A stretch of 64,000 bases of DNA from an uncultured bacterium (GCA_937983075.1 CALKAQ010000033.1:4114-68113), one strand, 5' to 3'. Shown: positions 46,474 through 64,000, numbered from the stretch's first letter. Notes: a model not told the origin generated them from the letters alone. A program made the numbers and translations.

Positions 46474-46549
46474 TGGCAGGGGAGACAGGACTCGAACCTG
46501 CAACCCCCGGTTTTGGAGACCGGTGCTCTGCCAATTGAGCTACTCCCCT
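46474..46549 (-). tRNA. tRNA-Trp (anticodon CCA)
   Basis: Reverse complement folds as AGGGGAG acceptor, GCUC D-stem, anticodon arm CCGGU-CUCCAAA-ACCGG, T-arm GCAGG-UUCGAGU-CCUGU, 3' GCCA. Confidence 0.85.
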
Positions 46550-52336: not shown

Positions 52337-53575
52337 CTACAGTTGTTCGAGTGCCGTGACGACTTCCTCCAGCGCAATGAAAATGTGCTCTTTGGATGTG
52401 CCGCCTTGCAGGAACACCGCATACGGCGGACGCATAGGGCCGTCGGCTGAAAACTCCAGCGAGCCGCCTTGTACAAAGGTGCCGGCCGCCATAATGACGG
52501 GATCGGCGTATCCCGGCAAATCTCCCGGCTCCGGAGTCACGATGGCGTCGATCGGCGATGCTTGCTGTACCGCTCGGCAGAAAGCCCGCATTTTATCGGG
52601 ATCGTTTAAAATCACGACTTGCACTGTATCGGTGCGGACGTCGTCCACACCGGGCCGCACTTCGTATCCCATGGATTCAAACAGCGCCGCGGCGGTGACG
52701 GCTCCGATGACTGCTTCACCGACGACATGCGGAGCCATGAACAGACCCTGTAGCAGGATGCGCCCCAGCCCGAAAGTCGGCCCGACATCGCTGCCTAGCC
52801 CCGGTGCCGTAATCGCTTCGGCGGCGAGTTCAACGAGATCGCGACGGCCGGCGATGTATCCACCCGAAGGCGCCAATGTGCCGCCGGGATTCTTGATCAA
52901 AGAACCGGCCATCAGATCAACCCCTACGTTTGTCGGTTCTTGGTCTTCGACGAATTCACCGTAGCAGTTGTCGACAAAAACGACGATGTCCGGGCGATAT
53001 TGGTGTATGGCATCTGTGGCTTCTTCGATTTGCGCGATGCTCAGCGATGGCCGAAGTGAGTAGCCACGGGAACGTTGAATGAGGACCATCCGTGTTTCCG
53101 GACGAATGGCCGCCAGCGCGGCCGGAATATCGATGTTGCCCTCCGGAGTTAGCTCCACCTCATCGTAAGCGATGCCCCATGCACGCAGTGAACTCTTGCC
53201 GGGGCCTTGAATCACTTGCCGCAAGGTGTCGTAAGGAGCGCCGCTGATGGAAAGCAGGTGATCGCCGGGTCGCAATATGCCAAACAAGCTCTTGGTGATG
53301 GCGTGCGTGCCCGAAATGAGCTGCGGCTGAACGACCGCGGCTTCCGCCTGCAAACTTGCCGCAAACACGTTGTTCAAGGCTTCACGGGCGGGATCATTGT
53401 AGCCGTAGCCCGTTGTTCCGGTAAGGTGGAACTCCGTGATGTGATTGCTGCGGAAAGCATCGAGAACTCGCTTTTGGTTTTTCAATCGAACCGCATCGAC
53501 ATGCGCCCAGGCGCTTTGGGCACGACGGATCGCTTGTTGAACCAAAGGCAACTCCGAAATCAGATGTACCGCCAT
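52337..53575 (-). CDS. ynbB: YnbB-family PLP-dependent enzyme (methionine gamma-lyase-like; aluminium resistance protein family)
   Basis: Full-length similarity to B. subtilis YnbB / Met_gamma_lyase family (PLP Lys region SLIKNPGG). Confidence 0.8.
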   Translation of the reverse strand: MAVHLISELPLVQQAIRRAQSAWAHVDAVRLKNQKRVLDAFRSNHITEFHLTGTTGYGYNDPAREALNNVFAASLQAEAAVVQPQLISGTHAITKSLFGILRPGDHLLSISGAPYDTLRQVIQGPGKSSLRAWGIAYDEVELTPEGNIDIPAALAAIRPETRMVLIQRSRGYSLRPSLSIAQIEEATDAIHQYRPDIVVFVDNCYGEFVEDQEPTNVGVDLMAGSLIKNPGGTLAPSGGYIAGRRDLVELAAEAITAPGLGSDVGPTFGLGRILLQGLFMAPHVVGEAVIGAVTAAALFESMGYEVRPGVDDVRTDTVQVVILNDPDKMRAFCRAVQQASPIDAIVTPEPGDLPGYADPVIMAAGTFVQGGSLEFSADGPMRPPYAVFLQGGTSKEHIFIALEEVVTALEQL

Positions 53576-53799
53576 TAGATCTTCGTCACCGCCGAACGAA
53601 CTTTCACCCGTTTGCCTCCAAGGCTGTCGATGGTCGAGTCACGCAGCTGTTTTTCCGAATGAACTTGGAGGCGCCACTTGCCACTTTCCAGCGGGCGAAT
53701 TTCCAGTTCACCGCTGATCTCATGCTTTTCCCAGAGTTTATCGACTGCTTTGCGCAGCGTCGCTTCGTCGTCGAACTCGAGGGCGAAAGATATGATCAT
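53575..53799 (-). CDS. Hypothetical small protein (74 aa), stop overlaps ynbB start (TAATG)
   Basis: ORF with translational coupling to ynbB. Confidence 0.45.
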   Translation of the reverse strand: MIISFALEFDDEATLRKAVDKLWEKHEISGELEIRPLESGKWRLQVHSEKQLRDSTIDSLGGKRVKVRSAVTKI

Positions 53800-53824
53800 A
53801 AGTTGATTCCTTCCCTGCCGTTGA

Positions 53825-54654
53825 TTAATCGTTCGTTGCCACCGTCGTCAAGGTCCCACGGTCGATGCCTTGACGGAACGATGCCATAAAACTGTAGGCG
53901 ACCTCCGCTGCAGCTTCCGGGGACGAAGCGTTTTCATGAATGGTGTTGATCAGCGCGCTGCCGACAATGACGCCATCGGCCACGCCGGCTACTTGTGCCG
54001 CCTGATCCGGCGTGGAAATGCCAAACCCCACGGCGAGAGGAATGTCGGTCACTTTGCGGACACGACTCAAAAACGGCTCAAGAGCGGTCGATATGTGTGT
54101 GCGCACACCGGTAACACCGGTCAAGGAGACGCAGTAAATAAAGCCGGACGCTTGCTCGGTCGTGCGCTTAATGCGCTCGGGCGTACTTGTGGGAGCCAGG
54201 AGGTAAATGAGGTCAAGCCCGGCGTCCTTCGCTTTTTGCCGCAAGCTTTCGCTGGCTTCGAGAGGCAGGTCGGGGACGATCAAGCCGTCGATGCCCGCTG
54301 CGGCGGCGTCGGCAACGAAACGTTCTTCGCCCTGTCGGAAAATGCAGTTGTAATATACCAAATATAAAAGCGGCACTTCGACCCCTTGCGTACGCATTTG
54401 TTTGACCGATTCGTGCACTTTGGCGATGGTCGTGCCGGCCTCGAGCGCTCGTTGGGCCGCGAGCTGAATCGTCGGACCGTCGGCGAGCGGATCGGAATAA
54501 GGTATGCCGATTTCGATTAAATCGGCTCCACCGGAGACAAGCGCAGGCACGATGGCCTCGGTTGCCGCCAATGAAGGATCTCCCGCCGTGATATACGGGA
54601 TGAGTGCTGTTCGTTTCTCGGCACGCAGCCGTTTGAACGTATCGGCAATGCGAC

Positions 54655-54658
<4 letters not shown>
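53825..54658 (-). CDS. trpA: Tryptophan synthase alpha subunit
   Basis: [28 protein letters not shown] canonical N-terminus; start overlaps trpB stop. Confidence 0.9.
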
Positions 54659-55851
<1,193 letters not shown>

Positions 55852-56469
55852 GGTAAGAACTCCTCGCTCTCGCAATAAACTGCTGCATTTTCTCATGGTC
55901 CTTGACGCCGGGGGATTCTTCCACCCCGCTCGAGGTATCGACGCCGAACGGCTGGACGACCTTGATCGCTTCGGCGACATTGTCCGGGGTAAGGCCACCG
56001 GCAAGGATGATACGACGTTTCCGAGCAATCTCCGTTGCCAAGGACCAATCAAAAATGTGCCCGGTTCCGCCGGGAACACCCGGAACGTATGAATCGAGCA
56101 AAAAGGTGTCCACCGGATATTCGTCAAGACGCGCCAAGCTTTCTGCATCCTTCACCCGGATGCTTTTGATCACTCTGCGGCCCAAAGGGAGCAGAGCCTC
56201 AACCTGCTCGGGCGTTTCGGATCCATGCAGCTGCAGAACGTCTAAATCGACCTGGTCGAGAACGGCTGCAATTTCATCTCGCGTAGCGTTGACGAACACT
56301 CCCACCCGGGAAATGAACGGACCGAGCTCTTTGCTGATGCGCCGAGCTTGCTCAGCGGTGATTTGCCGTGGACTCGGCGCAAAGATGAAGCCTACGGCGT
56401 TTGCCCCGGCGGCTTCAGCGGCCCGGGCATCTTCCGGGCGAGTCATGCCGCACAATTTAATTTGGATCA

Positions 56470-57276
56470 TCATGCGCGTTGCCCCTGCACACTTGATGAT
56501 GTACCGAGCAGCTCATCGACCGCGCTGCCGATGTCATCGCGTCGCATCAATGCCTCACCGACGAGGACGGCTTTCGCCCCTGCCTCCCCCATCCGCTCGA
56601 CGTCGGCACGCGTGAAGATGCCGCTTTCGGCGACGAGAGGAATTTCGGGCGGGATTCGTTTGGCAAGCCGGACCGTCGTATCAAGATTCGTTTCGAAGGT
56701 GTGGAGGTTTCGATTGTTCACGCCGATCAAACGGGCGCCCGATTCGAGCGCTGTATCGAGCTCCGCTTCGTCGTGCACCTCGACGAGGGCGTCCATGCCC
56801 AACTCTTCGGCAAGCTGGCGAAAATCGCGCAGCTGGTGTCGGTCGAGACATGCAACGATAAGCAAAATTGCATCCGCCCGCCAAGCCCGGCTTTCAACCA
56901 CCTGATACGGATCGATGATGAATTCCTTGCGCAAAATGGGCAAGCGAATTTCCTGCCGAATTTGCGGCACGTATTCCAGGTGGCCGCCAAAGAACTCTTC
57001 GTCGGTCAACACGGAAACAGCGGCAGCTCCATGCTTCTCATACGTGCGAGCAATCTCGACCGGATCAAAATCCGCACGTATGATCCCTTTCGACGGCGAG
57101 GCCCGCTTGACTTCCGCAATGAGCTGCACCGGGCGATCGTCTCGTGTGATCGCTTCAATGAACGGCACCGGCGGATCGTTTTCCCGAATGCGTGCTTCAA
57201 GAAACCGTTGCGCAACGAGGCGCTTTTGTTCAGCGACCTGTTCTTTCTTATGGGCTACGATGCGTTCGAGAATCAA
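56470..57276 (-). CDS. trpC: Indole-3-glycerol phosphate synthase
   Basis: ILERIVAHKKEQV ... IGS synthase motifs; probable TTG/GTG start (57276 or 57285) overlapping trpD end. Confidence 0.85.
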   Translation of the reverse strand: MILERIVAHKKEQVAEQKRLVAQRFLEARIRENDPPVPFIEAITRDDRPVQLIAEVKRASPSKGIIRADFDPVEIARTYEKHGAAAVSVLTDEEFFGGHLEYVPQIRQEIRLPILRKEFIIDPYQVVESRAWRADAILLIVACLDRHQLRDFRQLAEELGMDALVEVHDEAELDTALESGARLIGVNNRNLHTFETNLDTTVRLAKRIPPEIPLVAESGIFTRADVERMGEAGAKAVLVGEALMRRDDIGSAVDELLGTSSSVQGQRA

Positions 57277-57277
57277 T

Positions 57278-58300
57278 TTACGCACAGCTCCTGATTGTAT
57301 AGTCACGCAAGGCTTCGAGTTTGGCCAAGGCCTTGCCCGAGTCAATGCTGTCCGCTGCCAGGGCGACGCCGTCCTTCAAGTTGTCGGCAAGTCCGGTGAC
57401 GACCAACGCCGCCGCGGCATTCATCAAGACGACGTCGCGCGGCGCACCCTTTTCTCCGGCAAGGACCGCTTGAATGATTTGGGCATTGGTGACGCTGTCG
57501 CCGCCGATTACGGATTCGCGGGACGCGGTTTGGAGCCCAAAATCTTCCGGCTCGATGATTTGCGTTGTAACTTTCCCTTCCTGCAGCAGCGAAACCCGCG
57601 TGGGTGCGCTGATGGAAATTTCGTCGAGGCGGTCGAGCCCGTGCACGACATACGCCATCTCGACGCCGAGCCGACCGAGGACCTCGGCTAATATGGGCGT
57701 CAGTTCAGGCTTGTAGACACCGACAACCTGCACGTGGGCGCCTGCCGGGTTCGTCAGGGGACCTAAAATGTTAAAGATCGTTCGGATGCCGATTTCCTTT
57801 CTCGGGTTGACGGCGTATTTCATCGCTCCGTGGAACGTCGGCGCAAACAAAAAACCAATGCCGACGTCGTCGATACACTGTTGTACCTGCATGGGCGTAA
57901 GGTCGATGCGTACTCCCAGCTGCTCGAGTACATCCGCCGATCCGCAGCGGCTTGAAACCGAACGGTTGCCGTGTTTCGCCACGGTTGCCCCCGCACCTGC
58001 AACGACAAATGCAGCAGCCGTGGAAATATTGAACGTTTGCGATCCGTCGCCCCCCGTTCCGCACGTATCGACGATTTTGGCGGCACGCGGCCGAATTTGA
58101 TCGGCTTTGGCCCGCATGACCCGAGCGCTGCCCGCGATTTCATCGACCGTTTCGCCTTTCATACGCAGCGCCGTGATATACGCGGCGATTTGGCTCGGCG
58201 TCGCTTGTCCACTCATAATTTCATCCATGACCGCCTGAGCTTCTGATTCCGTTAAATCGATTCCGTCGACAACCTTTGCAATCGCTTCTCGAATCACCAT
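57278..58300 (-). CDS. trpD: Anthranilate phosphoribosyltransferase
   Basis: ATG after GGGGAGGGG; GTGGDG motif; full-length TrpD similarity. Confidence 0.9.
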   Translation of the reverse strand: MVIREAIAKVVDGIDLTESEAQAVMDEIMSGQATPSQIAAYITALRMKGETVDEIAGSARVMRAKADQIRPRAAKIVDTCGTGGDGSQTFNISTAAAFVVAGAGATVAKHGNRSVSSRCGSADVLEQLGVRIDLTPMQVQQCIDDVGIGFLFAPTFHGAMKYAVNPRKEIGIRTIFNILGPLTNPAGAHVQVVGVYKPELTPILAEVLGRLGVEMAYVVHGLDRLDEISISAPTRVSLLQEGKVTTQIIEPEDFGLQTASRESVIGGDSVTNAQIIQAVLAGEKGAPRDVVLMNAAAALVVTGLADNLKDGVALAADSIDSGKALAKLEALRDYTIRSCA

Positions 58301-58321
58301 GAATTCCCCTCCCCGCACAGG

Positions 58322-58981
58322 TCATGAAAACGGTGAATTTTTGTCGGCTCGCTCGGCATCCACACGCGGAATCAACGGATTGCGAGGTTTCGCTGCGCTT
58401 TCCACCACCGGCAAGCCGGCTCGCCGCATGAAGTTCGCCAACAGCACGTGTCCCCAATCGGTGAGAATCGATTCCGGATGGAATTGAAATCCCTCTACGT
58501 CGAAATCACGGTGACGGATCCCCATGACTTCGCCTGCAGCGGTTTTGGAAGTAACGATCAACTCTTCGCCTATGGAATCGGGGTCGACGACCAACGAATG
58601 ATAGCGGGTTGCGTTGAATGGCGACGGAACGCCTTCATAAAGTCCCGAACCCGAGTGGTGGATTTCGGATGTTTTGCCGTGCATCAATGTTTCCGCCGGG
58701 ACGATGCGTGCGCCAAAAGCTTGTGCGATGCACAAATGCCCGAGACTGACGCCGAGAATCGGGATTTTGCCGGCGAACTGCCGGATGACGCTCAACGAAA
58801 TGCCGGCTTTGTCAGGCGTCGACGGCCCCGACGAGATGACGACAGCACTCGGATGCTTCTCGGCGATTTCCTCGGGAGTGATTTTGTCATTTCGATACAC
58901 CTCAACCGAAGCGCCCAGCTCTCCGAAGTACTGCACCAAGTTATAAGTAAAGGAATCGTAGTTGTCGATAATGATGATCAC
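58322..58981 (-). CDS. trpG: Anthranilate synthase component II (glutamine amidotransferase)
   Basis: Class I GATase triad context (GVSLGHLCIAQ ... FHPES); ~25-aa C-terminal tail. Confidence 0.85.
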   Translation of the reverse strand: MIIIIDNYDSFTYNLVQYFGELGASVEVYRNDKITPEEIAEKHPSAVVISSGPSTPDKAGISLSVIRQFAGKIPILGVSLGHLCIAQAFGARIVPAETLMHGKTSEIHHSGSGLYEGVPSPFNATRYHSLVVDPDSIGEELIVTSKTAAGEVMGIRHRDFDVEGFQFHPESILTDWGHVLLANFMRRAGLPVVESAAKPRNPLIPRVDAERADKNSPFS

Positions 58982-60507
58982 TCGGCTGCCTCCTCTGCAA
59001 TGACGACGGCCTTGAGCAAGCCACGAGCTTTGTTGAGCGTTTCTTCATATTCTTTTTCGGGATCGGAGTCGGCCACCACACCCGCGCCGGCTTGAATGTG
59101 CGCTTTTCCGTTGTGTACGACGACGGTTCGAATCGTGATGCAGCTGTCCATATTCCCGGAAAAACCGAAATATCCGATGGCACCGCCGTACGGTCCCCTC
59201 CGCGATGGTTCCAGCTCGTCGATAATTTCCATCGCCCGCACTTTCGGTGCCCCGGACAGCGTTCCGGCAGGAAATGCGGCTCGCAGCAAATCAAAGGCGT
59301 CACGCCCAGGCGCCAGTCGCCCCCGCACATTCGATACGATGTGCATGACGTGAGAGTAGCGTTCGATCATCATCAGCTCATCGACAACGACGCTGCCCGG
59401 TTCGCATACTCGCCCGAGGTCGTTGCGGCCGAGATCGACGAGCATCAAATGTTCGGCGATTTCTTTTTCGTCAGCCAAGAGGTCGCGTTCCAAGGCTAAA
59501 TCTTCCGCCGGATCATCACTGCGTGGACGCGTGCCCGCGATAGGCCGCAGCATCACTTCGGCGTCCTCCGCCCGAACCATGACCTCGGGAGACGAACCGA
59601 CAATCGCCACGCCGTCGAGCTTTAAATAGAAAAGATACGGCGACGGATTCACGGTACGCAGAACGCGATAAATGTTAAATGCGTCGCCACGCACAGGCAG
59701 CGTGAAGCGCTGTGAGAGCACCACCTGGAAGATGTCGCCCGCTCGGATGTACGCCTTGGCCTTCTCCACAGCGGATATAAATGCTTCTTTGGTGAAATTG
59801 GAAGTGATTTTGTCGGTGCGGGGAGGAGCTTGCAAAAGACCGCTTAGCGGCGACAGGCCATGCTCTTGTTGTAAAGCCGCCAGGACTCGGTCGATTTCAG
59901 CGAGGGCCCGATTGTAGGCCGTATCAGGATCGCCTTGAATGTGCGCGTTGTGGACGATTTGCAGCTTGCCACGCACATGATCGAAAATCAAGACCGTGTC
60001 GGTGAAGAGAAACGTCGATTCGGGCAAGCCGAGATCGTCGGGGTTGTTGTCGGGTATGTCCTCGGTATATCGCACCATGTCGTAACTGAAATAGCCGACC
60101 GCACCGCCGTAAAAACGCGGCAGCCCCGGAACCTCGACCGGCTGGTAGCGCTTTAACAGATCGCGCAAGGCGTCAATCGGGTCGTCCACCCAAAAGCGCT
60201 CTTTTCCCGCGGATGTTTCAATCTCGACTTGCTTTCCCCAGCTGCGGAATATAAGCGATGCGCTGGTTCCGACGAAAGAATAGCGCCCGAGCCGCTCGCC
60301 TCCTTCGACGCTCTCAAGAAGATAGGCATTGCGGCTTTCGCCCAGTTTTTTCAATGCGGATACCGGCGTATCGATATCGGCGATGATTTCTTTATAAACG
60401 GGGACCAAATTTCCTCTTTTTGCAAGTTCGTGAAACGTGCGACGATCAGGTACGATGCCGTCGTTGGTGGACGTATGATCCACAAACATTCGGGGTTGAA
60501 TGCCCAT
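58978..60507 (-). CDS. trpE: Anthranilate synthase component I
   Basis: Chorismate-binding enzyme motifs; probable ATG at 60507 after GAGGAAAGGAG (track ORF extends to 60585 into the terminator). Confidence 0.85.
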   Translation of the reverse strand: MGIQPRMFVDHTSTNDGIVPDRRTFHELAKRGNLVPVYKEIIADIDTPVSALKKLGESRNAYLLESVEGGERLGRYSFVGTSASLIFRSWGKQVEIETSAGKERFWVDDPIDALRDLLKRYQPVEVPGLPRFYGGAVGYFSYDMVRYTEDIPDNNPDDLGLPESTFLFTDTVLIFDHVRGKLQIVHNAHIQGDPDTAYNRALAEIDRVLAALQQEHGLSPLSGLLQAPPRTDKITSNFTKEAFISAVEKAKAYIRAGDIFQVVLSQRFTLPVRGDAFNIYRVLRTVNPSPYLFYLKLDGVAIVGSSPEVMVRAEDAEVMLRPIAGTRPRSDDPAEDLALERDLLADEKEIAEHLMLVDLGRNDLGRVCEPGSVVVDELMMIERYSHVMHIVSNVRGRLAPGRDAFDLLRAAFPAGTLSGAPKVRAMEIIDELEPSRRGPYGGAIGYFGFSGNMDSCITIRTVVVHNGKAHIQAGAGVVADSDPEKEYEETLNKARGLLKAVVIAEEAAE

Positions 60508-60560
60508 GCGCAGAAGGGCTCCTTTCCTCTGTATGCCCACCCCACATGCCGTTTGGACGG

Positions 60561-60602
60561 AAAAATAAAAGAAAATCCAACGCATGTGACCTTATGCCTT
60601 GG
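60561..60602 (-). terminator. Leader intrinsic terminator (attenuator) upstream of trpE
   Basis: CCAAGGCAU-AAGGUCAC-AUGCGUUGG stem-loop followed by AUUUUCUUUUAUUUUU on the transcribed strand. Confidence 0.55.
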
Positions 60603-60660
60603 GAAGACCGAGAGGAATGTACAGCAAGATTGCAAGGAAGGAGGAAGGGAGGGATGCTTC

Positions 60661-60708
60661 CTCAGCTCATCTTGTCTCAACTCGTCTCATCTCGGCTCTT
60701 CTCAACTA
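60661..60708 (-). promoter_or_regulatory. Array of about 9 (G/U)AG triplets with 2-3 nt spacers in the trp leader: candidate TRAP binding site
   Basis: Transcribed strand reads UAG-uu-GAG-aa-GAG-cc-GAG-au-GAG-ac-GAG-uu-GAG-acaagau-GAG-cu-GAG. Confidence 0.55.
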
Positions 60709-60745
60709 GGCTGGGCAGTGTATAATGCGGTAAACATTTGTAGTC

Positions 60746-60775
60746 ATTGTAATCATTGGCTGTCGTTATTGTCAA
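60746..60775 (-). promoter_or_regulatory. Sigma-A promoter for the trp operon (TTGACA-18-TACAAT)
   Basis: Perfect consensus hexamers on the minus strand about 200 nt upstream of trpE. Confidence 0.55.
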
Positions 60776-61282
60776 CCGTCAGCGGCGGGAAATACATGCC
60801 GTCGGATCCAGCACAAAGACAGTCTTCGGAATCACTTCGCGTGCTTGACGAATCCAAAAAGCACCGCCGACTGTGACGAAAATAACTCGGACGTAGTCCA
60901 AATCGTCATGACGATCGAGATATCGCCACACCTCTTCCCGCAATTGAAGATTTTTCCTTCCCGCCCAGAGTGGATTGTTTTTGTCGATTAGCCGTTAAAG
61001 GCAAACCAAGGTGACCAGTGGATTTTAAGTTCGCCCTGCTGGTCATCCCTTACAACGTGATGATTTTCGATAAATGAATACTCTTTTCTTCCGATTTGTA
61101 CAAAGTCCTCCTCGTGGCGCAACAAATGCGTCATGATCGGTGCAACCCCCTCTATTGACGGTCCTTCCAGTTCTCGATGCCGTCATGAACCCATCGACCC
61201 ATTGTACTATCACCAATGGCGCCGCAGCACCATATGCTACGTTAGGTCTTCGCAACCGTTTTGCGACCCGGAGGTTCGGATA

Positions 61283-61585
61283 ATGGTACAACTGATTCCG
61301 TTGGACATTGACGGGCGTCAAGCGATTGGTGTACGTGTGGATTTGCCGCAAACCAACTTAATCGCAATTACCACTGACAAAGGCTATATCATGTGTGGCG
61401 CACTCGACGTGCAGCTGCTGAATGAGCGATTGGCCAACCGCAAAATCATTGCCGGACGGGCTGTAGGCGTACGCACATTTGAAGATCTTTTGCAAGCTCC
61501 CCTGGAATCGGTTACGGACGGTGCGAAGGAAATTGGCATCCACGTGGGCATGGCGGGTATCGAGGCGATAGCCAAAATGTTTTAG
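61283..61585 (+). CDS. DUF1805 (YunC-like) family protein
   Basis: ATG after GGAGGT; 100-aa protein with conserved YunC-like pattern; longer track ORF is a 5' extension. Confidence 0.55.
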   Translation: MVQLIPLDIDGRQAIGVRVDLPQTNLIAITTDKGYIMCGALDVQLLNERLANRKIIAGRAVGVRTFEDLLQAPLESVTDGAKEIGIHVGMAGIEAIAKMF

Positions 61586-61839
61586 CAGGATTCAACGGAA
61601 CGGATTTCCGCACCCGTATCCGTTGCTTCGACTTCCCTTGAAGCGCTGCGTTCTCCGGCGAGCCGACCGCATACAATGCACGCCCCCCGCTCCCAGCTTT
61701 TCCTGCGCAGCTCAAGGGGCGCATAGGCACTTCCTTCCAGAAAGCCTTCGCGCTGACCGGTGCGCCGCCCAATGGCATAGCCCATGACGAGGGCAAGAAA
61801 AACGGTGAGGATGACGGCAGCGACAACGGCGGGACTCAT
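61582..61839 (-). CDS. Small membrane protein with C-terminal CxxC
   Basis: ATGA overlap with upstream gene; one TM helix. Confidence 0.35.
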   Translation of the reverse strand: MSPAVVAAVILTVFLALVMGYAIGRRTGQREGFLEGSAYAPLELRRKSWERGACIVCGRLAGERSASREVEATDTGAEIRSVESC

Positions 61840-62483
61840 GGCAGCCACCCTTTCGGAGGATCTGCAATTCCCGGCGATTCCCGCTTGGTGCGCAGCGCCA
61901 GACGCCACACCCACGTATCGAGCACGGCAGCGGCAACAATGGTAAGCGCCGTTTCAATCGGATACAGCCACGCTGCGAGAGCAAAGCACGCCAACGCGAC
62001 GCCGTTCACCTCCACCCAGCCAAAGCGACGCAAGAGGTTGGGATTCCCGGACATTTGGTCGACGTGGTAATCGATCGTATCGTCAACGGCTTGAACGAAC
62101 ACCATCATCGCCAGGCCCCAAAGTTGTCTGACGGGGCCGAGAAGGAGTGCGCCGAGTCCCAACACCACCAAGCTTTCCTGCCAGCCTGTCAGTCCGCTTG
62201 GCAGAGCGCGCCTCAAATCTTGCACCATGCCAGTCGAATAAGCCGCCAAAAAAAGCGACAGAGCGACGGAAGGATGAAAAGCAGCGCCGACGGCCAAAAG
62301 AACGAGTCCGTAAGGCAACGTTGCTTCGCCGAGCCGAACGGCCGGACTGGGAATGCCTGTCTGCGAATCGTATCGGAGATCCAAAAAGTCGTCCATGAGT
62401 TTTACGGCCAAACCCGCGCAGAGAATGGCGGCACCTGCACGGACGGTGGCCATGAGCGCCTCTTCAAATCCAACGCCAGACAA
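61836..62483 (-). CDS. Hypothetical integral membrane protein
   Basis: Multiple TM helices; start overlaps GTPase gene end. Confidence 0.45.
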   Translation of the reverse strand: MSGVGFEEALMATVRAGAAILCAGLAVKLMDDFLDLRYDSQTGIPSPAVRLGEATLPYGLVLLAVGAAFHPSVALSLFLAAYSTGMVQDLRRALPSGLTGWQESLVVLGLGALLLGPVRQLWGLAMMVFVQAVDDTIDYHVDQMSGNPNLLRRFGWVEVNGVALACFALAAWLYPIETALTIVAAAVLDTWVWRLALRTKRESPGIADPPKGWLP

Positions 62484-63072
62484 ATCGTTTCACCTCACGG
62501 AACCCCTCGCGTTTCAGGGCCGATATGGGGGCGATTGGATGCCCGGAAAATTCACGTCGAATGCGCTCCAAACCTTCACGTGCTTTCGGCAGATCCATTT
62601 TGTTGGCCAGGATCAAATACCCCCCTCGCATCAGCGCAAATTGTGCGACCTGGTAATCAACTTCGCCGAACGCTTCGACGGCGCCGCGTTCGGCGGCACG
62701 CGAGGCATCAACCATGTGCAGCACGAGTTTGGCGTCGCGCACGGCAGCCAGCGTCTGGGCCATGGACGACCGAATGTCTTGGTCGGCCGGAATTCCATCG
62801 ATGAGACCGCTCGTGTCGACAATCTCAAACCGCTTGACACCCTTGCCGGCAGGCAAGTCGACGGTGATGGACTGAAGTTTGCGGGTGTGATGTGGCTTAT
62901 CACTGACCAACTCACGCAATGCCTGTTCAACAGTATACGTCGTGCGAGTGACCGTTCCAGACGGGTCTTTGGCCGTGACGACGAATTCTTTCATGCCGAG
63001 GAACGCCGCAAACTGGATGACGAATAGGCTCTTGCCCACGTTGGTCTTGCCAATGATGATGCATTGTTTCAA
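62464..63072 (-). CDS. Small GTP-binding protein (MMR_HSR1/Era-like GTPase domain only)
   Basis: G1 GKTNVGKS, G3 DTSGL, G4 NKMD motifs. Confidence 0.7.
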   Translation of the reverse strand: MKQCIIIGKTNVGKSLFVIQFAAFLGMKEFVVTAKDPSGTVTRTTYTVEQALRELVSDKPHHTRKLQSITVDLPAGKGVKRFEIVDTSGLIDGIPADQDIRSSMAQTLAAVRDAKLVLHMVDASRAAERGAVEAFGEVDYQVAQFALMRGGYLILANKMDLPKAREGLERIRREFSGHPIAPISALKREGFREVKRFVWRWI

Positions 63073-63959
63073 ACGGCGTTCACCTCCTCGAGGTCCGCCT
63101 CCTCGATCACCATCAGTTCTTCCCGGCTTGAGTGCTGCTTTTTCACGAGTCGAACCGCTTGGCGCCGAATCGCCCGTTCGATCAAATTGCGCACCATGCG
63201 TGCATTGCCGGCGTTCGGGTCGTTGCGAGCCACTTGCTGCTCTAAAATTTTCTTGAGCCGCTCCCGCGCGGCCGGCGACAAACGGTATTGGCGTTGACGC
63301 AGCATGTGATGTGCGATTTGCAGCAATTCTTCGGGTGTATAATCCGGGAACGGAATGTGGATGGGAAAGCGCGATTGCAACCCCGGATTCGTCTGCAAAA
63401 AGCCTTCCATCTCGTCGTGATAGCCGGCGAGAATCAATATGAACTCGTCTTTGTGGTCTTCCATGGCTTTAACGAGCGTATCGATGGCCTCCTTGCCGAA
63501 ATCCTTTTCACCGCCTCGGGCTAAGGCGTATGCTTCATCGATGAATAAGATGCCGCCCATCGCTTGGTTGATCTGATGGCGCGTTTTTTGCGCCGTGTGC
63601 CCGATATATTCACCGACGACGTCGGCGCGCTCGCATTCCACCAAATGTCCTTTGGACAACACGCCCATTTCACGGAACATCCGGCCAAATATTCTGGCGA
63701 CTGTTGTTTTTCCGGTGCCTGGGTTGCCTTTAAAAATCATATGCAGGACCAGCGGCTCACTGACCAAATGCTGCTTTTTGCGGCGCTGTTGAATCTCGAC
63801 GAATGCCTGCACTTCTTTGACGAGCTTTTTGACGGATTCCAGCCCGATCAGCGAATTGAGTTCCGCTTCCACTTCGCGCAAACGTTGCAGCCTTGCTTCT
63901 TCGTCATCTTCCGCTTTTTCTTTCGCTTTGGGACGTGACGAATGCACCATGTTCGACAC
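63069..63959 (-). CDS. spoVK: Stage V sporulation protein K (AAA+ ATPase); true start may lie beyond 63959
   Basis: Walker A GNPGTGKTT, Walker B ILFIDEAY, SpoVK/CbbX-family features; start overlaps GTPase gene (ATGA). Confidence 0.8.
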   Translation of the reverse strand: MSNMVHSSRPKAKEKAEDDEEARLQRLREVEAELNSLIGLESVKKLVKEVQAFVEIQQRRKKQHLVSEPLVLHMIFKGNPGTGKTTVARIFGRMFREMGVLSKGHLVECERADVVGEYIGHTAQKTRHQINQAMGGILFIDEAYALARGGEKDFGKEAIDTLVKAMEDHKDEFILILAGYHDEMEGFLQTNPGLQSRFPIHIPFPDYTPEELLQIAHHMLRQRQYRLSPAARERLKKILEQQVARNDPNAGNARMVRNLIERAIRRQAVRLVKKQHSSREELMVIEEADLEEVNAV

Positions 63960-64000
63960 GGGAGCTCCGTCGTGATTCAGTTGCTCCTGGCCTTTGTCGA

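Follow-up and report, generated by a model that had tools for sequence, protein, structure and literature searches.

The region from 60775 to 60561 on the minus strand of the window, i.e. the whole 64,000-nt stretch of DNA that was analysed, is best explained as the leader of an operon, trpEGDCFBA, that is under Bacillus-like control by TRAP (MtrB). We assign this reading a probability of roughly 0.88, and from it we infer both TRAP binding and termination in vivo. A TRAP-regulated trp operon had been predicted in an earlier note on this DNA, and the prediction is supported by the triplet array in the leader, by negative Rfam scans, by an mtrB gene assigned to the population genome and by the alternation of two RNA folds in silico. 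As far as in-silico tests reach, the leader shows every feature that defines a TRAP-dependent trp attenuator. The leader is a further example of a well-known switch with a textbook mechanism, expected wherever mtrB is present, and its differences from B. subtilis are details. The result provides a confident functional annotation of trp operon regulation in an uncultured Firmicute known only from metagenomes.

The 5' part of the leader contains the following features:

60746..60775, minus strand: Sigma-A-type promoter (sequence read; score 11/12)
60661..60713, minus strand: putative TRAP-binding array, also the predicted 5' arm of the antiterminator (shuffle controls; identical in six independent SRA contigs)
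CAG 60713-11, UAG 60708-06, GAG 60703-01, 60698-96, 60693-91 and 60688-86, minus strand: NAG triplets (sequence read)
GAG 60683-81 and 60678-76, AAG 60673-71, GAG 60668-66 and 60663-61, minus strand: NAG triplets, continued (sequence read)

The promoter consists of TTGACA at 60775-60770, a spacer of 18 nt and TACAAT at 60751-60746, and is the top-scoring promoter-like site in a promoter scan of 58000-64000. Described earlier as perfect, it turns out to be near-consensus, with 11 of the 12 consensus positions matching and the extended -10 absent. Transcription of the trp genes would start at about 60739, ~7 nt past TACAAT, which places the UAG of the array ~31 nt downstream of the putative start. 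Directly upstream of the -35 box, a 54-aa ORF (60779-60943, minus strand) shows a weak match to UPF0236 (E=2.4e-4, 20.5 bits, with a gathering score of 24.3), which we take to be a transposase-related family. This ORF may be an insertion-sequence remnant beside the trp promoter.

The triplet string previously read from the minus strand, UAG-uu-GAG-aa-GAG-cc-GAG-au-GAG-ac-GAG-uu-GAG...GAG-cu-GAG, matches the sequence exactly. The count of about nine spaced triplets holds for the (G/U)AG type, of which nine are present, but the gap left in the string is an in-register ac-AAG-au and a CAG-cc lies one step upstream, giving a total of 11 NAG triplets. These run from 60713 to 60661 (minus strand) with a strict 5-nt period, all ten spacers being exactly 2 nt, and comprise 9/11 G/UAG, one CAG and one AAG. 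A TRAP site is defined by 11 NAG triplets, N being mostly G or U, at distances of 2-3 nt (PMC3184956, PMC3064811), while nine to eleven triplets have been used as a criterion (PMC3184956, PMC4347634). The 60713-60661 array falls within the range of 9-11 NAG triplets with 2-3 nt spacing, and it sits in the 5' untranslated leader of trpE, between the promoter and a hairpin with a U tract. The array is non-random, far beyond chance. With spacers of 2-3 nt, the longest (G/U)AG chain has 7 members in the leader vs 3 in the remaining window (both strands) and 2-4 in 100 dinucleotide shuffles, and the NAG chain has 11 members vs 3-6 in 200 window shuffles.

Downstream of the leader, the operon order trpEGDCFBA was established from 60507 down to 53825 (minus strand), with Pfam matches for all seven genes. 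The assignments below are based on Pfam and on the gene calls on identical contigs:

60507-58978, minus strand: trpE
58981-58322, minus strand: trpG
58300-57278, minus strand: trpD
57285-56470, minus strand: trpC
56473-55820, minus strand: trpF
55851-54655, minus strand: trpB
54658-53825, minus strand: trpA

Gene callers annotate a 535-aa TrpE from the in-frame ATG at 60585 (P0141; L001-L006). The extra 26 codons of this form (60585-60508) correspond to the 3' arm of the terminator, the U tract and the Shine-Dalgarno (SD) region. Since alignments with TrpE homologues begin no earlier than residue 18-20 of the 509-aa form, the orthologue with 83% identity (L090) is called at the same MGIQ start with the same Shine-Dalgarno upstream, and the 535-aa ORF crosses the terminator, the shorter start at 60507 is right, as had been suggested before. 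A systematic mis-call of the trpE start is hereby corrected, to 509 aa instead of 535 aa. The window also contains the tRNA-Trp(CCA) gene mentioned earlier (46474-46549, minus strand), 14 kb from the leader; no link between this gene and the trp leader is evident.

Next, the region between the array and trpE was examined by folding. It contains the following features:

60634..60654, minus strand: pyrimidine tract UCCCUCCCUUCCUCCUUCCUU, 21 nt, all pyrimidine (MFE structures, duplex energy)
60596..60640, minus strand: predicted 3' arm of the antiterminator, CUUCCUU...CCUCUCGGUCUUC (60640-60603), and its extension (co-transcriptional fold snapshots; truncated-transcript fold)
60561..60602, minus strand: attenuator, hairpin CCAAGGCAU-(8-nt loop)-AUGCGUUGG followed by A and UUUUCUUUUAUUUUU (sequence read; folding)
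60505..60529, minus strand: trpE ribosome-binding region, SD GAGGAAAGGAG at 60529-60519 and ATG at 60507-60505 (sequence read; same SD and MGIQ start in L090)

The hairpin CCAAGGCAU/AUGCGUUGG at 60602-60577 (minus strand) closes an 8-nt loop with 8 pairs and one G.G mismatch, at an energy of -9.1 kcal/mol. It is followed by an A and then by UUUUCUUUUAUUUUU (60575-60561), a U tract with 13 U in 15 nt that is interrupted by a C and an A. The end of the tract at 60561 lies 53 nt before the trpE ATG at 60507, in agreement with the ~50 nt given earlier for a hairpin and U tract. The 60602-60577 hairpin is weak, and a generic terminator scan did not list it.

In the free RNA, folding predicts a long imperfect hairpin of ~115 nt, with the array (60711-60657) as its 5' arm and 60640-60596 as its 3' arm. 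This antiterminator is extended by two further sets of pairs, GCCU 60711-08 with AGGC 60599-96 and G60706/G60703 with C60601/C60602. Because these pairs use the terminator's own 5' arm, the 3' arm of the antiterminator overlaps the 5' arm of the terminator. According to the fold snapshots, the MFE of every transcript ending from 60594 to 60561 keeps the extension. The terminator pair probability amounts to 0.07-0.25 in the free RNA vs 0.52-0.91 when 60713-60661 is forced single-stranded, mimicking bound TRAP. Mutually exclusive antiterminator and terminator structures had been anticipated for this leader, and folding with the array free or blocked gives this alternation in silico. In the models, the exclusivity rests on the 4-6 pair extension and on the co-transcriptional order; the MFE structure predicted for the complete read-through transcript accommodates both the terminator and the core of the antiterminator. 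The two alternative structures lie only ~2 kcal/mol apart if the leader is folded without its first 23 nt, and because this margin is small the outcome would depend on folding order, as in the model system. The fold z-scores are modest (-1.6 and -2.3, the latter for the truncated-transcript fold), and since all six strain contigs share one and the same leader, they carry no covariation signal.

The pyrimidine tract had been proposed as the antiterminator partner of the array. This applies to its last 7 nt, which pair with the array, but the main 3' arm is 60640-60596, and in the MFE structure most of the tract is found in the apical loop of the free-RNA antiterminator. Its better-supported predicted role is that of an anti-Shine-Dalgarno for trpE once TRAP frees the tract. 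The unpaired probability of the SD is ~0.97 in the free RNA vs ~0.3 with the array blocked, and pairing of the SD with the tract at 60651-60641 is predicted in the array-blocked state only, with a probability of ~0.44 (plus alternative registers). The duplex of tract and SD has an energy of -15.3 kcal/mol. TRAP is known to alter secondary structure so that a ribosome-binding site is blocked (PMC4347634). Two further complementarities were observed in the leader. The segment CACAUGCGUUGG (60587-60577, minus strand) in the 3' arm of the terminator is complementary to CCAAACGGCAUGUG (60555-60542), the two enclosing the U tract. Near the 5' end of the leader, GUUUACCGCAU (60735-60725, minus strand) is complementary to AUGCG..UUGGAU in the same arm.

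Based on these folds, the switch would work as follows. When Trp is scarce, TRAP would be inactive and the nascent RNA would form the ~115-nt hairpin, with the array at 60711-60657 as 5' arm and 60640-60596 as 3' arm. As the base of this hairpin would take in C60602/C60601 and AGGC 60599-96, the weak terminator would not be formed and RNA polymerase would read into trpE. When Trp is plentiful, the Trp-loaded TRAP ring would wrap the 11 NAG triplets around its rim as they emerge, making the 5' arm unavailable. With the array held by TRAP, the hairpin at 60602-60577 and its U tract would form, and transcription would stop at ~60561-60570. A second layer may act on read-through transcripts with TRAP bound, in which the freed tract would pair with the trpE SD, resulting in less translation.

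An mtrB homologue, which such a switch calls for, is absent from the 64-kb window (tblastn with TRAP), from the 10-kb flanks on identical contigs and from the other fetched loci. The window proteins occur in metagenome assemblies and SRA runs only. An initial TRAP search gave Bacillaceae only among the matches listed. An exhaustive HMMER search of the TRAP family, which is compact, gave 127 representatives at 50% identity, and word-indexed searches gave thousands of 90% clusters, many from GC-rich lineages, which adds to the evidence for TRAP control well beyond Bacillaceae. A profile made of GC-rich TRAPs retrieved P0402, a protein of 73 aa encoded on 68 contigs (sources NCBI, Logan, ENA), including NODE_95_length_75378_cov_5.92 of assembly ERZ794981. 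The same assembly contains a trp contig, NODE_66_length_87620_cov_6.14, that matches the window at 99.91% identity along 15.6 kb, a stretch in which trpGDCFBA is included. The coverage of both contigs matches (5.92 for NODE_95 vs 6.14 for NODE_66), and the NODE_95 segment has a GC content of 56.1% and a tetranucleotide correlation with the window of r=0.97, the window's internal control being 0.96-0.97. P0402 is also found in run SRR23005580, which has a trp-operon contig with an identical leader. Based on the shared assembly, coverage, composition and co-occurrence, the population genome with this trp operon very probably encodes TRAP. The mtrB homologue, the absence of which would have spoken against the earlier note, was found on NODE_95 of ERZ794981, the linkage being of the binning type and not by contiguous sequence.

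P0402 matches the Pfam family TrpBP (PF02081) with 141.6 bits (E=6.9e-42) over profile positions 2-68 of 69, and shares 70% identity over its full length with the TRAP of G. stearothermophilus (PDB 1C9S) and 62% with that of B. subtilis. In an alignment with both, it keeps EKLD (Lys37), K.RG (Lys56, Arg58), GLTRG.DT..HH and AQFTEHTS. We take Lys37, Lys56 and Arg58 (B. subtilis numbering) to be the RNA-binding residues of TRAP, while the GLTRG.DT..HH and AQFTEHTS segments presumably line its Trp pocket. Judged by its sequence, P0402 is a bona fide TRAP of the TrpBP family. Two other candidates for this organism's TRAP, P0395 (81 index blocks, mtrB after dnaE) and P0387, had been chosen by their source and contig-count signature and were rejected as belonging to other organisms, with tetranucleotide correlations of 0.65 and 0.63 and GC contents of 58.5% and 67%, respectively.

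The mtrB gene is found here in the order aroA, ytrI and ytrH (opposite strand), mtrB, a 69-aa DUF2007-like ORF, accDA, pfkA and pyk. Two other GC-rich Bacillota have mtrB immediately behind dnaE, where it overlaps either dnaE or the gene that comes next; pyk lies after mtrB in L095. The mtrB loci with a non-Bacillus context are:

L104, 10001-10222: mtrB
L095, 10001-10282: mtrB
L098, 4164-4448: mtrB

When the window and the fetched contigs, which make up a small part of the genome, were searched by tblastn with an approximate B. subtilis anti-TRAP sequence, no match was obtained at E<0.4. To our knowledge, anti-TRAP (rtpA) behind a Trp T-box occurs only in B. subtilis and close relatives, and it is accessory rather than defining.

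The leader was then compared to those of relatives. Among species representatives, no TrpE exceeded 58% identity. TrpE homologues at 83% (L090), 71% and 66% identity also have leaders with NAG arrays, and the triplets upstream of trpE number at least 12 in L090, whose contig starts inside the array, 8 in L091 and 10 in L093. Six more Bacillota MAGs from the species-representative scan carry 6-10 (G/U)AG triplets upstream of trpE. No DNA-level match of the window to L090 or L091 was obtained with blastn (E<=1e-20). NAG arrays are thus lineage-wide and typical of Bacillota with mtrB. The leaders L014, L022, L023, L026, L038, L063, L090, L091 and L093 resemble the one described here in having a promoter, 7-12 triplets and a hairpin, usually with a U tract, followed by trpE, and a CU-rich complement of the GAG array is found in several of them. 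This CU-rich segment is adjacent to the SD in L022, L023 and L026, but to the array in the leader described here. Unlike here, a clear 5' stem-loop is present in L091 and L093, together with a promoter and a hairpin and U-tract terminator. The terminator probability in L093 is 0.02 in the free RNA vs 0.83 with the array blocked, while the terminator of L091 is predicted to form in both cases. The leader of L090 (1-217) has no recognisable U-tract terminator and contains GUUUCAACUCAU, 12 nt located ~30 nt 5' of the SD that form a perfect complement of part of the array; control in L090 may be at the translational level only. The transcriptional part is not uniformly conserved among relatives (L090, L091). 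If L090 truly lost its terminator and kept the array, this lineage would show TRAP control shifting between transcriptional and translational modes. Second, short arrays were also observed: five triplets right after trpE in L026 (1857-1879), a Clostridium sp. MAG, and a 5-triplet array ~865 nt past the end of the trpE match in L023 (12329-12351). TRAP controls trpG translation in B. subtilis, of which the array after trpE in L026 is reminiscent.

Like the leader described here, the leader of the B. subtilis trpEDCFBA operon has 11 NAG triplets, mostly GAG or UAG, directly upstream of trpE, and in it, too, the array coincides in part with the 5' side of an antiterminator, a few nucleotides of which also belong to the downstream terminator. 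The B. subtilis attenuator combines 11 repeats with a weak terminator, a poor stem and an interrupted U tract (PMC3064811), and the terminator found here is likewise weak, with a poor stem (a mismatch) and an interrupted U tract. A second, translational layer by means of a TRAP-released, SD-sequestering structure is a further probable likeness. In contrast to B. subtilis, all ten spacers are exactly 2 nt, one arm of a very long predicted hairpin takes up the array in full rather than its 3' part alone, and the only candidate for a 5' stem-loop ahead of the array is a marginal, unconvincing 5-bp hairpin. Furthermore, trpG is inside the operon, and mtrB, which follows folE (mtrA) in B. subtilis, has ytrH on one side and accDA-pfkA-pyk on the other. 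The limited DNA examined showed no anti-TRAP gene. The B. subtilis trp operon is, we assume, embedded in an aro supraoperon, which the operon described here is not. The closest solved TRAP is that of G. stearothermophilus (70% identity to P0402), an 11-mer with (GAGAU)n RNA in PDB 1C9S, and the array found here is close to an idealised GAG-NN repeat as in that complex. The C-terminal tail differs between the two proteins (QVQSGRT against VIESEGKK). As this tail sets an 11-mer vs a 12-mer ring (PMC3184956), the ring size of P0402 is not readable from its sequence.

Part of this evidence could also be read as TRAP binding the array and acting mainly or only on translation or mRNA fate, the freed tract sequestering the trpE SD and the hairpin and U tract being too weak to contribute more than a little. 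The SD core, ~97% unpaired in the free RNA and ~30% with the array blocked, fits such a reading, as do the predicted tract partner at 60651-60641 (P ~0.44, -15.3 kcal/mol), the known RBS-blocking structure induced by TRAP (PMC4347634) and L090, with its array and 12-nt array complement 5' of the SD but without a U-tract terminator. The weak hairpin, missed by the generic scan, points the same way; however, the B. subtilis attenuator is equally weak and yet efficient with TRAP bound (PMC3064811), and the hairpin with 13 U in 15 nt stands exactly where an attenuator is expected, its 5' arm overlapping the antiterminator. As the two layers are compatible and both operate in B. subtilis, we regard control without a transcriptional part as unlikely. 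An even less probable explanation takes the array and its pyrimidine-rich complement as a long structured 5' UTR, such as an mRNA-stabilising or RNase III hairpin, or as the site of another protein, with the TRAP gene coming from another organism. The long hairpin is indeed the dominant predicted structure, but a plain helix needs no triplet periodicity, and NAG arrays upstream of trpE recur in relatives with a diverged flanking leader, which argues for selection on the triplets rather than on the helix. HutP binds UAG with 4-nt spacers and CsrA binds GGA, sites that differ from a 2-nt-spaced NAG array. Although mtrB is connected with the window through binning alone, coverage, composition (r=0.97 vs 0.63-0.65 for the foreign TRAP contigs) and co-occurrence all place the TRAP contig in this genome.

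Trp operons of other bacteria are also controlled by T-box riboswitches or by ribosome-mediated attenuation at a leader peptide, and a tRNA-Trp gene is located in the window. A scan of the window at the Rfam gathering threshold retrieved two tRNAs only, and a permissive Rfam scan (E<=10) of 60350-60950 retrieved nothing on the transcribed strand. These scans bear out the earlier statement that the leader has no T-box sequence, and they rule out a T-box or other curated riboswitch or leader. The leader ORFs ending before the terminator have 11-12 codons without any Trp codon, and no tandem Trp codons occur, so the leader is not a ribosome-mediated attenuator either; both possibilities together are left with a negligible probability. 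The preferred reading thus remains TRAP-dependent attenuation in the manner of Bacillus. A more far-reaching, tentative view that we consider possible but doubtful is that of a compact dual switch unlike that of Bacillus. In such a switch the entire 11-triplet site would form one arm of the ~115-nt hairpin, and the tract in its apical loop, once released by TRAP, would act ~115 nt away as trpE anti-SD, in an uncultured Bacillota lineage with mtrB moved from folE to a dnaE/ytrH-pyk neighbourhood.

Finally, some observations were made on the surroundings of the trp operon (52337-64000, minus strand). The operon is flanked by a spoVK-like AAA gene and a small GTPase gene on one side and by an ynbB-like gene on the other. 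As spoVK, ynbA and ynbB are presumably adjacent in B. subtilis, the trp operon looks like an insertion into a conserved spoVK-ynb block. Farther along from the operon, lexA is found with a divergent LysM gene, in a yneA-like arrangement. Between trpA and the Met_gamma_lyase (ynbB-like) gene lies a conserved ORF of 74 aa (53575-53799, minus strand), the stop of which overlaps the start of that gene, and a copy with 66% identity is present at the same place in L091. No Pfam family matches this TRAP-sized ORF at threshold (RraB E=0.012), and its AlphaFold model, with the order beta-alpha-beta-beta-beta-beta (pLDDT 69), shows no significant PDB fold match. The TRAP fold is all-beta, and with a fold unlike TRAP and no Pfam or fold match, the ORF was rejected as a TRAP analogue.
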